Below, in pieces: positions 4,897 through 24,790 of a stretch of DNA of 24,790 bases (position 1 is its first letter; every line of letters begins with the position of its first letter). Made by a program: the position numbers and the translations under genes. The stretch is from a virus (taxonomy: Duplodnaviria > Heunggongvirae > Uroviricota > Caudoviricetes). The stretch lies in IMG/VR virus record IMGVR_UViG_2711768033_000002; one strand, 5' to 3'. The notes beneath the pieces are model-generated. The model was not told the origin of the DNA. It made no database searches and saw only the letters and a list, made by a program, of their open reading frames with translations.

Positions 4897-5595
4897 TTAC
4901 TGCGAAAGTTTGTTAATGGAAAGGAAGCTGCCAAAGTTGCCGACATTATTGCGAAACTTACAGCCACTCAGGCATTTGCTGCATTTATCCTTCGTGATAT
5001 CGGACGTCGGCTGGTCATATTCATCCGCGACCGCCGGACCGCTATAACCGCACTCATCGCCGCGATAGGTCCAGGTGCAGGTGTTGGCCAGCATGATACG
5101 TCCCGGAAAAACAGCGCCATCCGTTTCAGTCGGCGTGGACAGTACAAAAGAGGCACTGACCGCGCTCAGTTCGCTGCACTGCTCGATGCGCCAGCGGCTG
5201 ATCACCTCCTGCTCCGGATCGGCTTCGCTGTTTCCGTTGACGAAGTTCACCGCATCCAGAAAGCGGGCGTAAACCTTACGCCGGACCACCGTTCCGCCGA
5301 CCAGACTCTGCAGATCTTCCGCCATCCCGGTGATCATGCCGTGCAGGTTAGAGACCGTCAGTGTCGGACGGGCAGCACTGCCCTTGCCGTTCATCTCAAA
5401 TCCACTCCCCTGAATGGGATAGGCCTGATACTGCCGACTCTGCCAGGTGACAGACTCACCTTTTTCGTTCTGCTCATTACAGAAAAAGTAGCGATCCCCG
5501 CCTACCTCGGTCAGGTCGATTTCCCAGAGCACCACGCTGGCCGACTGCTCCGCACGAATGCATTCATTCAGCGTTTCCTGTTGTATGTCCTGCAT
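4897..5595 (-). CDS. L: Minor tail protein L (lambda gpL family)
   Basis: 232 aa; [31 protein letters not shown] resembles lambda L; C-terminal Cys cluster; start overlaps the M stop (TGATG). Confidence 0.9.
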   Translation of the reverse strand: MQDIQQETLNECIRAEQSASVVLWEIDLTEVGGDRYFFCNEQNEKGESVTWQSRQYQAYPIQGSGFEMNGKGSAARPTLTVSNLHGMITGMAEDLQSLVGGTVVRRKVYARFLDAVNFVNGNSEADPEQEVISRWRIEQCSELSAVSASFVLSTPTETDGAVFPGRIMLANTCTWTYRGDECGYSGPAVADEYDQPTSDITKDKCSKCLSGCKFRNNVGNFGSFLSINKLSQ

Positions 5596-19894: not shown

Positions 19895-20146
19895 TTAGTC
19901 CTGATTTTTATCCACCCTGAGTAGTTCGCGCAGAGCAAAGGCATCCCCTTTTCTGGCAAGCTTAAACAATGCCGCTCGTAACTCGGCTTCACCTTTCGCT
20001 CTGCCCTTACGGATGGCCGCATAAAAATCTGTCATTGCTTCCCGATTTTCTTTCAGTCGGTTCAGATCAACATCCAGAACGTCAGCGATTTGTTGTGCAG
20101 TCATCCGGCACGCTGCCAGAGACTCGACTTTCGAATACGGAATCAT
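19895..20146 (-). CDS. Small hypothetical protein, possibly DNA-binding
   Basis: 83 aa; ATG 20144-20146 preceded by GGGGGTG at 5 nt; stop is 3 nt before the terS ATG; overlaps the 3' end of the GT-like gene by 65 nt in another frame. Confidence 0.5.
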   Translation of the reverse strand: MIPYSKVESLAACRMTAQQIADVLDVDLNRLKENREAMTDFYAAIRKGRAKGEAELRAALFKLARKGDAFALRELLRVDKNQD

Positions 20147-21014
20147 TTGTCACCCCCATTGATATGCAGGGTGTCTTCTTCCTGTATTTTTCGTGAAGGA
20201 TTTTTACTGCAGCGTTGTTCCAGGTGACCTGATGGTGAATGCGTTTATGGCTGGCACCCATCAGTGAGATTTTTACGCACGACGGCGAATACATGACGGA
20301 GTAAAAACTTTTAACGTAGGTTCCGGAATCCAGATACAGCTCGGTCATTCCGCCGCTGTTTTTCTGCGTCTGTTTCTGCCCTAACTGGACAGCACCGATC
20401 GTCATAAACAATTCACCACAGCGACCGAGATTCGTGTACGTATTCACATCCTCGTTAATGCGCCCCATGAATGAGAACGGTCGATCAACCGAACAGATAA
20501 AGCTGTTCATTGCCTTGCGTTTCACCCACGAAGCATGGCCGCCATTGTCACCAAGAAAATCCCCGCCCTGCGACATAGCGATGGAAAGCGCGGGTATTGA
20601 TTCGTAATACGCCAGCATTTCAGAAAGGATCGCATCCAGTTTCCTTATCGGGAAATAGGCCTGGTCATAGTTGCGATCCACCCGAAACTGGAACTCGTGA
20701 TAATCATCATCGAGCTGAATGAAGTATTTACACCCGACCAGTTTTGCCAGGTCGAAACAGGCATTACGGGCGTAAAAAATTGAGCGGCGATCACCAAAAT
20801 TATCGGCTTCGTCAAAACGACTGGCAATATCGGCTTTGGAAAATACCAGCACCTGTTCACCAAATTCAGCCATGTACTGATGCCGTGTCTTATCTTCATC
20901 ATCAACAACGATAAAAATTTTCCCGGTATAGCCAGCACGACGCAACGTCCGGTAAGTCAGAACTTTGTCCGGTCGCCCGTGAGTCAGAATAAAGGCGCAA
21001 AAATCATCACGCAT
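20082..21014 (-). CDS. Soluble GT-A fold glycosyltransferase candidate
   Basis: 310 aa from ATG 21012-21014 (MRDDFCAFILTHGRPD...), with GGAGGAGGAGGAGGA immediately upstream as SD; the track start at 21038 is an alternative. Motifs KIFIVVDDED and KYFIQLDDDY are spaced like GT-A DxD motifs; no TM segments. Confidence 0.6.
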   Translation of the reverse strand: MRDDFCAFILTHGRPDKVLTYRTLRRAGYTGKIFIVVDDEDKTRHQYMAEFGEQVLVFSKADIASRFDEADNFGDRRSIFYARNACFDLAKLVGCKYFIQLDDDYHEFQFRVDRNYDQAYFPIRKLDAILSEMLAYYESIPALSIAMSQGGDFLGDNGGHASWVKRKAMNSFICSVDRPFSFMGRINEDVNTYTNLGRCGELFMTIGAVQLGQKQTQKNSGGMTELYLDSGTYVKSFYSVMYSPSCVKISLMGASHKRIHHQVTWNNAAVKILHEKYRKKTPCISMGVTNDSVFESRVSGSVPDDCTTNR

Positions 21015-21801
21015 ATTCCTCCTCCTCCTCCCCGCCATGCATGATCTCCACCATGCGCTGCGTCATTCGGACAAATCCATTTTCAATAGCCTGCTGATAA
21101 TCAATGATCACCAGCGCCGACTCCTCGAAAAGGCACTGAATTTCAGCGGGGGCATGAGCGTAATAGTCCGCAATTCTGCTGAAATTAAACACTGTGTGAC
21201 GTTCTGCCGCACACAGGAGGAATTTCTCAATATCAGGATCAAGGGACGCCGAACGTATCCGGCTGATCAGCTCCTGAGTTTTCGTATCGTCGTACAGTTC
21301 ACTGATATCCGGTTTACCGCCCGACGGCTCATAAACAGGCGTATCAATTTTCGTCGTATACGGCTCCTCCTCATTTCCTGTACCGGGCAAAACATCCGTC
21401 AACAGTTCATCAATTTCTGTCGGGATGAAGCCTGTCAGGGAGACATCAAAATCAGCATTGATTAGGTCCGACAGCTCCATCCGCAACAGATCTTCATCCC
21501 AGCCAGCATTCATCGGCAGGCGATTATCTGCCAGGCGGTACGCCTTTTTCTGCTCATCCGTCAGGCCAGACAGAACAATGACCGGAACAGAATCCATTTT
21601 GAGCATTTCAGCCGCCATAACACGACCGTGACCCGCAATAATTTCGCCCTTTTCGTCAATCAGCACCGGATTAGTCCAGCCGAATTGCTTAATACTTTCT
21701 ACCAGTTGTGCCACCTGCTCAGGGCTGTGCGTCCTGGCGTTGTGCGCATACGGTGACAATTCTTGTAATGGGCGATAGACTATCTTTAATTTCTCGCTCA
21801 T
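21007..21801 (-). CDS. ParB-like nuclease-domain protein
   Basis: 264 aa; N-terminal KIVYRPLQELSPYAHNARTHSPEQVAQLVESIKQFGWTNPVLIDEKGEIIAGHGRVMAA fits the ParB/Sulfiredoxin (ParBc) signature including GHGR; acidic C-terminus GGEEEEEYA. Confidence 0.8.
   Translation of the reverse strand: MSEKLKIVYRPLQELSPYAHNARTHSPEQVAQLVESIKQFGWTNPVLIDEKGEIIAGHGRVMAAEMLKMDSVPVIVLSGLTDEQKKAYRLADNRLPMNAGWDEDLLRMELSDLINADFDVSLTGFIPTEIDELLTDVLPGTGNEEEPYTTKIDTPVYEPSGGKPDISELYDDTKTQELISRIRSASLDPDIEKFLLCAAERHTVFNFSRIADYYAHAPAEIQCLFEESALVIIDYQQAIENGFVRMTQRMVEIMHGGEEEEEYA
21017..21031. repeat. (TCC)5 trinucleotide repeat
   Basis: Plus tcctcctcctcctcc; on the minus strand it encodes the EEEEE tail of the ParB-like protein and forms the GGAGG SD (or RRRR codons) for the downstream GT-like gene. 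Confidence 0.6.
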
Positions 21802-21938: not shown

Positions 21939-23396
21939 TTAGGAGCGCCAAAAAAAACCTGAAAACAATATAATAACAGGATAAATTTCAAGGCGACCAA
22001 GAATCATAGCTATGCACATTAAACATTTTGCAATGTCATTAAGCACTCCGAATGACGATGCAGTAGCCCCAAAACCTAATCCCATATTATTAATACATGC
22101 AGCCACTGTTGCAAATGATGTAAGAAAATCATATCCCATACCATTTAACACCAGTATAAAAAACACCGTGAAGAGAGTATAAAGAAAAAAGAAACTCCAT
22201 ACAGACCTCATTACACGATCTGTAACTATCTTCCCTCCTACATTTACACTCAACAACGCTCTGGGATGAGAAAGCTGATTTATCTCGTGTTTGCTTTGTT
22301 TGAAAAGTATAAGAAATCGAAGTGACTTAATTCCACCACAAGTTGAACCTATACATCCCCCAAAGAAACTTGACAACAGCAAAAACACTATCGTGTGCGT
22401 GGGCCAACTTGCATAATCCTGCGTAGCTAAACCATTATCAGTGAGCATGGAGCTGGCAAGAAAAAACGAATGAATAAAACTTCCATGCAAGTCATACATA
22501 CCTATATGCCAGACCTGGAAAGAGGTAACAATGATCACCCCTAAGGCTATTAACAGAAAGAAACGAAGTTCAATATCTCTGATTAAAGGTTTTATCGTTT
22601 TCCTGCTAATAACAATATACCAAAGAGTGAAGTTGAAAGCCGATAGCAGGGAAAAAGAACCAGCCACCAGCTCAACCAAATAGTTATTAAAATATCCGAT
22701 ACTCTCGCTATGAGTTGAGAAACCACCAAGCGAAACTGTGGAAATCCCGTGACAAATAGCATCAAACAAAGGCATTCCTGCAAGTCTATAACAGACAATA
22801 CAAGCAATACCTAATAAAGAATAAGTTATCCACAGTGTCCGTGACGTATCGGCCAGGCGGGGAGTGAGTTTGTCATCCTTAAATGGCCCCGGCATTTCTG
22901 ACTGATAAAGCTTTGCACCACCAATACCCAATAATGGCAATACAGCAACCGCCAGAACAATAACTCCTAAACCACCTATAAAATTTAACTGTGACCGATA
23001 GTACAAATATGCCCGAGGTAATGAACTAACATCATCAATTACAGTTGCTCCTGTTGTTGTTATTCCAGAAACCCCTTCAAACAGAGCATCAATGAACGTT
23101 AAATTAAGTTCTGAGTCAATCCATAAAGGGAATGCACTAATAACAGAAAACAAAATCCAAAACATTACAATTATAATAAACCCATCACGGGTACGTAATT
23201 GAATGCCAGATTTCTTAGTTGTATACCACGCTCCGCCACCAATGCAAAAAAATATAACGAAAGTTATAAAGAAAACGAACAGGCTTTTTTCTTTATAAAA
23301 CAATGCTACAACCATTGGTGGCAACATTGAAAGACTATAGAGCCAAACCAGGAACCCACACATATGAGTAACAACTCTTACATGAGATGTATTCAT
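21939..23396 (-). CDS. trkG: TrkH/TrkG-family potassium uptake membrane protein
   Basis: 485 aa from ATG 23394-23396 (MNTSHVRVV...); many TM segments; four TrkH-type filter motifs (SGITTTGATV, LGGFSTH, GGCIGSTCGG, NMGLGFG); markedly AT-rich; the prophage context matches the known location of trkG in Rac. Confidence 0.85.
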   Translation of the reverse strand: MNTSHVRVVTHMCGFLVWLYSLSMLPPMVVALFYKEKSLFVFFITFVIFFCIGGGAWYTTKKSGIQLRTRDGFIIIVMFWILFSVISAFPLWIDSELNLTFIDALFEGVSGITTTGATVIDDVSSLPRAYLYYRSQLNFIGGLGVIVLAVAVLPLLGIGGAKLYQSEMPGPFKDDKLTPRLADTSRTLWITYSLLGIACIVCYRLAGMPLFDAICHGISTVSLGGFSTHSESIGYFNNYLVELVAGSFSLLSAFNFTLWYIVISRKTIKPLIRDIELRFFLLIALGVIIVTSFQVWHIGMYDLHGSFIHSFFLASSMLTDNGLATQDYASWPTHTIVFLLLSSFFGGCIGSTCGGIKSLRFLILFKQSKHEINQLSHPRALLSVNVGGKIVTDRVMRSVWSFFFLYTLFTVFFILVLNGMGYDFLTSFATVAACINNMGLGFGATASSFGVLNDIAKCLMCIAMILGRLEIYPVIILFSGFFWRS

Positions 23397-23533
23397 ATCT
23401 AAATATTCTTTCAATTATAACCACCTTGCTGCAATATTATGATTATACTGTATAAAATTTAACTCCTCTTAGATCTTACTTCACTGTTCCTTATGAAACA
23501 ATCATCAAAATGAATCATATTGTAGTTAAGATT
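23397..23533 (-). promoter_or_regulatory. AT-rich putative promoter region for trkG
   Basis: Minus strand has two TATAAT hexamers (cagTATAATcat and ggtTATAATtga) within 50 nt of the trkG ATG; no good -35 match was found, so this is tentative. Confidence 0.3.
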
Positions 23534-23998
23534 TTACTTTAAACACTGCTCGGTTATGTATTGCTGAGCACCTTCAAGTTGGGCCTGCATCATTACCAGT
23601 CGTTCCCGGAGGGTGAAATAATCCCGTTCAGCGGTGTCTGCCAGTCGGGGGGAGGCTGCATTATCCACGCCGGAGGCGGTGGTGGCTTCACGCACTGACT
23701 GACAGACTGCTTTGATGTGCAACCGACGACGACCAGCGGCAACATCATCACGCAGAACATCATTTTCAGCTTTCGCATCAGCTAACTCCTTCGTGTATTT
23801 TGCATCGAGCGCAGCAACATCACGCTGACGCATCTGCATGTCAGTAATTGCCGCGTTCGCCAGCTTCAGTTCTCTGGCATTTTTGTCGCGCTGTTCTTTG
23901 TAGGCGATGGCGTTATCACGGTAATGATTAACACCCCATGACAGGCAGACGACGATGCAGATAACCAGAGCGGAGATAATCGCGGTTACTCTGTTCAT
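23534..23998 (-). CDS. Rz: i-spanin Rz
   Basis: 154 aa from ATG 23996-23998, forming an ATGA overlap with the endolysin stop; N-terminal TM ([16 protein letters not shown]) and coiled-coil periplasmic domain; TAA at 23534-23536. Confidence 0.85.
23593..23778 (-). CDS. Rz1: o-spanin Rz1 (lipoprotein), nested inside Rz in another frame
   Basis: 61 aa; lipobox VVGC followed by TS; Pro-rich (PPPPP, QPPP); fully embedded in Rz. Confidence 0.8.
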
Positions 23999-24492
23999 TG
24001 CTGACCCCACAAACAGATTTCACGCTCAATCTCACGACGAGTCATGAGACCTTTCCATTGCTTACCGCCAGCATATGTCCAGCGACGTAGCTGATCACAT
24101 GCGCCTTTGATATCGCCCTGGTTTATTTTGCGAAGAAGCGTCGATGTTCTGAAATTGCCAGCACCCACGTTGTAAACGAATGAGTAAAGAGCGCCGCGCG
24201 TTGTTTCCGGTATATCGACTTTGATGTACGGGTTAATTTGTCTGGCGACCGTGGCAAGGTCTTTATTCAAGAGTGTTTTGCATTCTGCTTTGGTATACGT
24301 TTTACCGAGCATGATGTCTTTTCCTGTATGCCCGTGACATACAGTCCATACACCAACAATATCTTTGTATGGTATGTAGCTGACACCTTCCAGACCATCG
24401 TTACCACTTGGGCCAGTGATTAACACTGATGCTATAGCAATTGCTCCGCCACCAATAGCAGCAGCAACGACTTTTCGTAATGATGGAGGCAT
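23995..24492 (-). CDS. R: SAR endolysin (T4-lysozyme-like, phage 21 R type)
   Basis: 165 aa from ATG 24490-24492 ([27 protein letters not shown]...); Gly/Ala-rich signal-anchor-release segment followed by a lysozyme core; the 9-codon track extension is encoded by IS2 sequence and uses TTG. Confidence 0.88.
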
Positions 24493-24790
24493 AGACTGGC
24501 CCCCTGAATCTCCAGACAACCAATATCACTTAAATAAGTGATAGTCTTAATACTAGTTTTTAGACTAGTCATTGGAGAACAGATGATTGATGTCTTAGGG
24601 CCGGAGAAACGCAGACGGCGTACCACACAGGAAAAGATCGCAATTGTTCAGCAGAGCTTTGAACCGGGGATGACGGTCTCCCTCGTTGCCCGGCAACATG
24701 GTGTAGCAGCCAGCCAGTTATTTCTCTGGCGTAAGCAATACCAGGAAGGAAGTCTTACTGCTGTCGCCGCCGGAGAACAGGTTGTTCCTG
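24492..24790 (+). mobile_element. IS2 (IS3 family) end carrying the orfA start, truncated by the window edge
   Basis: TAGACTGGCCCCCTGAATCTCCAGACAACCAATATCACTTAAATAAGTGATAG from 24492 matches the IS2 terminal inverted repeat as I recall it; followed by orfA. Confidence 0.85.
24583..24790 (+). CDS. insC: IS2 orfA (InsC-type transposase/regulator), 5' partial
   Basis: ATG 24583-24585; [69 protein letters not shown]; runs off the window end. Confidence 0.85.

Follow-up and report, generated by a model that had tools for sequence, protein, structure and literature searches.

An insertion sequence at the start codon of a phage endolysin gene raises the question of how it came to be there, what it has done to the lysis cassette that it interrupts, and whether it is an isolated event. 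We address these questions for the window, the whole 24,790 bp stretch of DNA analysed here (IMG/VR virus record IMGVR_UViG_2711768033_000002). The presence of IS2 at the start of the endolysin gene R, close to the right end of the window, is confirmed.

The prophage that carries the insertion is widespread. Hundreds of complete E. coli genomes carry a prophage that matches the 24.5 kb up to position 24492 at 100% identity, and at least 80% of the window is present in 679 complete E. coli genomes. The source element is a full-length Rac-locus ('KingRac'-like) E. coli prophage with trkG, and this moron shows that the window is related, as a full-length form, to the Rac remnant of K-12. Rac-locus prophages can be active, as reported for KingRac (PMC12251178). 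trkG is located downstream of R-Rz-Rz1 and separates the lysis cassette from the packaging genes. The features needed here are as follows.

21939-23414, minus strand: trkG, potassium-transporter moron (TrkH family, E=5e-145)
23534-23998, minus strand: Rz (i-spanin), overlapping the R stop (Pfam Phage_lysis PF03245, E=3.7e-53)
23593-23778, minus strand: Rz1 (o-spanin lipoprotein), inside Rz in another frame (Pfam Rz1 PF06085, E=2e-19)
23995-24492, minus strand: R, intact 165-aa SAR endolysin of the phage-21/RrrD type (Pfam PF00959 and PDB matches)
24487-24491, no strand assigned: AGGCA, predicted left copy of the target site duplication (TSD), made up of codon 2 and some of codon 1 of R and deduced from the 5-bp rule for TSDs
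24492-24790, plus strand: left part of IS2, the first 299 bp of an element of 1331 bp, truncated where the window ends (299/299 identity)
24492-24533, plus strand: IS2 left inverted repeat (IRL), 42 bp, TAGACTGGCCCCCTGAATCTCCAGACAACCAATATCACTTAA, read from the sequence, with length and role from PMC3299598
24500-24505, minus strand: IS2-derived AGGGGG run, putative surrogate Shine-Dalgarno sequence, 7 nt upstream of the R ATG
24583-24790, plus strand: 5' part of IS2 orfA (InsC-type HTH protein; Pfam HTH_Tnp_1), pointing away from R

Between trkG and the terminase genes the prophage also carries, on the minus strand at 20082-21801, genes for a ParB_N-domain protein (264 aa) and then a TET-associated glycosyltransferase (PF20691, E=6e-35), a glycosyltransferase annotated elsewhere as 'GREB1-related'. 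The pair may constitute a DNA-modification module; a TET/JBP partner was not seen close by.

The junction itself can be placed to the base. Positions 24480-24500 read atgatggagg CAT AGACTGG, and on the plus strand GTAATGATGGAGGCA is followed across the break by TAGACTGGCCCCCTGAATC. When aligned with an uninterrupted cassette and a pair of annotated IS2 copies, the window matches the S-R cassette through GGAGGCAT and then matches IS2 from TAGACTGG onward, with T24492 common to both; uninterrupted S-R cassettes are identical to the window up to and including this base. From T24492 the window corresponds to the left end of the annotated 1331 bp IS2 in NZ_CM129042 (relative L001), with all 299 positions identical; its IRL is identical to that of annotated IS2 copies, and the records matching this part of the window carry the annotation 'IS3-like element IS2 family transposase'. 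We assign T24492 as the first base of IS2 because 23 of the 25 complete IS2 copies mapped in the cassette are 1331 bp long and begin with this T, their TAGACTGG start following directly on a perfect 5-bp duplication. Most IS2 copies from other genomes have the same first T flush against a 5-bp duplication. T24492 is also the complement of the A in the R start codon. The junction position is not a chance sequence match, and its location exactly at the start codon carries no special statistical weight, since IS2 occupies at least 14 distinct sites across R in different strains.

The first-pass annotation had named the element from 24492 as IS2, which the alignment bears out, and had orfA transcribed away from R, which also holds, although the reading frame starts at 24583 and not at 24584 (HTH_Tnp_1 matches at 24583-24789, E=8.6e-17). 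Where it had IS2 abutting the ATG at 24490-24492, the element does begin at 24492 and so overlaps the start codon by one nucleotide. The splitting of the lysis cassette that it described is real on the R side and a prediction on the S side.

The endolysin gene next to the junction is complete. R begins MPPSLRK, matches Phage_lysozyme (PF00959) with E=1.8e-45, and is identical to the crystallised RrrD (PDB 4zpu) at 162 of 165 residues over residues 1-165; PDB 3hde matches as well. R aligns with RrrD from residue 1, which identifies the ATG at 24490-24492 as the authentic start. The GH24 catalytic residues E35, D44 and T50 are present in the translation, and the predicted SAR segment, a Gly/Ala-rich N-terminal stretch at residues 8-26, is the same as in full-length crystallised RrrD save for V8A. 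Judged by its sequence, R is a phage-21-type SAR endolysin of the GH24 class.

Relatives lacking the insertion show the organization that IS2 has altered. In every uninterrupted relative a class II (S21-type) holin (PF04971, 71 aa) directly precedes R, its stop codon overlapping the R start. The minus strand of the uninterrupted reference NZ_CP032237 reads GCGAGAGGTGAATAATGCCTCC; here the 71-aa holin ends in TAA, the last A of which is the A of the R ATG (TAATG), and the native Shine-Dalgarno sequence of R, GAGGTGA, is located within the 3' end of S. The minus strand of the window reads GGAGATTCAGGGGGCCAGTCTATGCCTCC at the R start. The A of the R ATG is now the terminal base of IS2, and both the reading frame and the start codon of R are kept, by a one-in-four coincidence. 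The GAGGTGA sequence and the TAATG coupling to S are absent from the window, and IS2 sequence stands in their place. For the AGGGGG run, the predicted duplex with the 3' end of 16S rRNA has an energy of -9.4 kcal/mol, versus -7.1 for the native site. Folding of RNA contexts of 80-120 nt, however, places the run in the paired part of a predicted IRL hairpin, and in such a folded model, with the G-run base-paired, translation of R could be very low.

The region upstream of S in the relatives includes a DUF1133 or faint Phage_antitermQ gene about 2.5 kb from S. Closer to S, between TolA-like moron genes and the holin start (L001 8579-8670, equivalent to about 5243-5340 in relative L002), there is a terminator-like hairpin, AGCTCGC-TACG-GCGAGCT with a T-run, and after it a promoter-like TTGATG-16-CATAAT.

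The reading that we favour, with a probability of about 75%, is a genuine IS2 transposition into the one-base overlap of S stop and R start in the phage-21-type cassette of a Rac-locus prophage. IS2 belongs to the IS3 family and transposes by a copy-out/paste-in mechanism. The element would then be complete (1331 bp, with the DDE-encoding orfB, a -1 frameshift and the right inverted repeat) and flanked by a duplication of AGGCA, and a pinholin-type S with its stop codon intact would lie beyond the far IS2 end, as would the late promoter. The far side is predicted to read IS2 ...GGGGCAAATCCA and then AGGCATTATTCACCTC, the end of S, with AGGCATTATTCACCTCTCGC (the S stop and 3' end) expected directly after the right end of IS2. 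In a simple insertion the duplication would have carried the original A of the R ATG to the far side.

Across E. coli this cassette has been struck by IS elements many times independently, the window insertion being one such event. At least 54 records have IS2 there, and 25 loci were mapped (relatives L001, L003, L004 and L027-L048) in a reference frame in which position 301 is window position 23500, Rz occupies 335-799, R 796-1293 and S 1293-1508, and the window site is 1292. The 25 mapped loci represent 21 distinct combinations of IS2 site and orientation, given here in the reference frame.

Window orientation: 375, 722, 905, 958, 1025, 1042, 1090
Window orientation, continued: 1133, 1158, 1205, 1225, 1606, 1647
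Window orientation: one site in a bor/iss-type lambdoid
Opposite orientation: 958, 1004, 1046, 1196, 1338, 1548, 1591

Thirteen of the 21 combinations lie inside the 498 bp R gene, and the window site makes a fourteenth; Rz has two, S has one, and the 140 bp upstream of S have four. IS2 in the cassette is of two sequence types, which share about 100% and about 95.7% identity with the L001 copy. We note that site 1548 (TSD TTATG) falls in the putative -10 of the promoter-like TTGATG-16-CATAAT upstream of S.

How far this is peculiar to the lysis region was assessed with queries built in the same way for all regions, each of 993 bp of prophage joined to the first 298 bp of IS2. The records with IS2 joined were as follows.

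Rz-R query (window orientation): 39 records
Terminase query: 0 records
Capsid query: 0 records
Tape measure query: 1 record

At least 15 further records have IS2 in the opposite orientation beside Rz-R. The cassette is also struck by other elements. In HCP6S3_I1 (NZ_CM149868; L062, 1285-2080) an IS1 with a 9-bp duplication, GAGGCATTA, is inserted at the overlap of S stop and R start no more than 3 bp from the window IS2 site, with essD and rrrD both annotated as intact, and IS3 proper interrupts R in strains PSJ-36 and LR-25 (L061, NZ_AP027648, about 1185-2445). The literature searched contained no description of IS2 in endolysin or Rac lysis genes, or of recurrent IS targeting of this cassette.

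Such an excess could arise because the cassette is a regional hot target of IS2 for structural reasons, DNA curvature for example, with the insertions being selectively neutral; we give this somewhat less than an even chance. Hot regions are documented for IS2, and in PMC3299598 and the references cited there its insertion is described as non-random in phage P1 and hemB, with curvature possibly guiding it. The cassette resembles these regions in its many sites, the use of both orientations, the lack of a consensus and the strong regional excess. An alignment of 20 IS2 sites gave no target consensus. A candidate motif like GATGGAGGCA, taken from flank extensions of about 10 nt on BLAST matches, was rejected as a ranking artefact; neither two such loci, when inspected, nor the 20-site alignment gave a consensus. 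At individual sites, the 5-bp target AATTG (site 958) holds IS2 in opposite orientations (L001, 6659; L042, 959), and at each of sites 1205 and 1548 the IS2 copies differ in sequence between strains. The repeated use of identical targets suggests reuse of preferred sites. Targeting by IS2 accounts less well for the strikes of IS1 at the S/R boundary and of IS3 inside R, since these have different target rules, and for the distribution of the sites, which pile up in R (the window included) and just upstream of S but are rare in Rz and in S itself. The cassette further differs from the P1 and hemB regions in that its insertions come from natural genomes and not from a hunt for mutants in the laboratory, and in that lysis genes are hit; sharing the target with IS1 and IS3 makes selection inseparable from targeting.

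Retention by selection is a more tentative explanation. Silencing a leaky SAR endolysin, or lysis generally, may benefit the lysogen, and the insertions would then be steps in prophage domestication. Three IS families converge on the cassette, the enrichment is in R and the S leader and not in Rz/Rz1, and the three other prophage regions queried are nearly IS2-free, although equally dispensable to the host. The promoter-like site and moron gene just upstream of S in the relatives also speak for selection. In the mouse gut, lower induction of KingRac/Nef lysogens was selected (PMC9509342), but the same study found no mutations within the prophages. Selection is also at odds with the expectation that an induced cell is still killed by the pinholin and by phage replication, and with the reuse of identical target sites, which points to targeting; moreover, the support from site numbers comes from 25 of at least 54 records, with events counted without a phylogeny. 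We consider it rather unlikely that, in full-length Rac-locus prophages, the S21-R21-type cassette acts as a population-wide IS sink caused by repeated selection of E. coli to silence a leaky SAR endolysin, with the window and HCP6S3_I1 IS1 alleles as 'clean uncouplers'. If this were true, a clean uncoupler would keep S and R intact and make R expression conditional on Q-antiterminated transcription.

The favoured reading of a simple insertion has to be weighed against the possibility that position 24492 is the endpoint of a rearrangement, by adjacent deletion or IS2-IS2 recombination, in which case R-Rz-Rz1 would be orphaned from late transcription and neither holin nor promoter would lie beyond IS2. 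Rearranged cassettes do exist. In strain HCM-22C-2 (L004, NZ_AP038228, 893-3315) the holin is followed directly by a tail-fibre gene, R, Rz, trkG and the morphogenesis genes being deleted, and an IS2 is located about 100 bp upstream of the holin; in H23 an IS2 and rrrD adjoin recE, and in L040 the cassette is bracketed by IS3 copies. Nonetheless, of the 25 IS2 copies mapped in the cassette, 23 inserted simply, each with a perfect 5-bp duplication, and the 24.5 kb of window flank ending at position 24492 match intact prophages at 100% identity. We regard a rearrangement as improbable.

IS2 might alternatively activate R, through a promoter within its end or one created by it, and give constitutive expression of R-Rz-Rz1. 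The first-pass annotation had left room for an IS2-end promoter driving R, and hybrid promoters formed by IS2 are known for ampC and acrEF (PMC9330008). For the window this is very unlikely, because R faces IRL and the outward -35 of IS3-family elements is located in the right inverted repeat (IRR), with IRL having a weak inward promoter, PIRL, just inside it (PMC3299598, PMC9330008). No outward promoter at IRL is described in the literature searched, and simple scans of the minus strand, covering the window junction and a complete IS2 taken from a relative, found no sigma-70-like site. Constitutive expression of a SAR endolysin would also be expected to be harmful.

A second copy of the junction was sought in several collections. 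By BLAST, a junction-spanning query had no single-piece match in the 5,426 complete E. coli genomes, scans found the exact left junction in neither the GTDB representatives nor the JGI metagenomes and the predicted right junction nowhere in the JGI metagenomes, and among phage records there was no match spanning the junction. The protein collection has no record of the 174-aa TTG-initiated ORF specific to the junction, and the exact R protein was located at 10 places, with IS2 next to R at none of them, in the 24 of 10,928 blocks covered. The best 100% BLAST match, strain 400660, was rejected as the window locus; its IS2 is in the middle of R (site 958), and the 100% is made up of rearranged pieces. 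The top BLAST matches as a group belong to strains that have IS2 at other places in this cassette. The absence of a second copy of the junction from every collection searched and the end of the window inside a repeat would suit a contig misjoined during assembly, but this is hardly credible for a break that falls exactly at the first base of IS2, as in real insertions, with 299 bp of IS2 in the window; a real insertion, in draft assemblies included, looks just like this, with unique flank running into an IS end.

If IS2 did transpose into the S/R overlap, as we favour, R would have no promoter of its own and none from IRL, and would therefore depend on transcripts passing through 1.3 kb of untranslated IS2 antisense RNA. 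The earlier claim that an upstream transcript must cross IS2 antisense to reach R, with orfA diverging from R, stands. Such an untranslated stretch is polar for ordinary RNA polymerase through the action of Rho, whereas the Q-modified polymerase of lambdoid phages resists both Rho and intrinsic terminators; a simple scan predicted no intrinsic terminator on the antisense strand of IS2. In the uninduced lysogen, read-through by ordinary polymerase from upstream would be stopped by Rho-dependent polarity and R would be silent, and after induction the Q-modified polymerase would cross IS2, with the level of R set by the surrogate ribosome-binding site. Of the further suggestion of polarity and a lysis-defective prophage, polarity is plausible for transcription that is not antiterminated, and a lysis defect is not established; partial support notwithstanding, it does not follow from the anatomy, in which the R reading frame and ATG are intact. 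SAR endolysins are exported in a Sec-dependent manner and do not need the holin. The lysis module of the prophage is probably impaired, and by this analysis lysis is more likely to be weakened or delayed than abolished.

Taken singly, the insertion is routine, one more IS in a prophage, and represents a new allele of a very well-known type of event. It shares with the polar and activating IS2 insertions of gal, lambda and the ampC hybrid promoter the same element, an identical IRL and the orfA HTH; the IS2 copies of the relatives are of 1331 bp with a 5-bp duplication, and the question of orientation-dependent polarity versus promoter creation is common to both. It differs from them in that IRL, not the IRR with its -35, faces the downstream gene, in that a stop/start overlap is hit, such that both flanking reading frames can stay intact, and in that Q-antiterminated phage late transcription must cross the element. 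In comparison with the S21 (pinholin)-R21-Rz/Rz1 cassette of phage 21 and essD-rrrD-rzpD/rzoD of DLP12, the window has an R that is 98% identical to the crystallised RrrD/R21 and the same nesting of Rz and Rz1, and its relatives have the 71-aa PF04971 holin and the TAATG overlap, but in the window IS2 takes the place of S at the R start, in a Rac-locus prophage with the trkG moron next to the cassette. The IS1 of HCP6S3_I1 occupies nearly the same position and differs in family and duplication length, and there both flanks are visible. The window thus constitutes a natural experiment, an intact SAR endolysin gene deprived of its native ribosome-binding site, of translational coupling and of the neighbouring holin gene, with the ATG kept by a coincidence of one base. 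The strong and previously unremarked excess of IS elements in the cassette offers a testable case of target preference versus prophage domestication.

Among the other mapped insertions, we note that L043 (NZ_CP148483, 1339-2669) has an oppositely oriented IS2 about 46 bp upstream of R, within the 3' end of S. The C-terminus of the holin is altered by this insertion, and it is the IRR, with its outward -35, that faces R.
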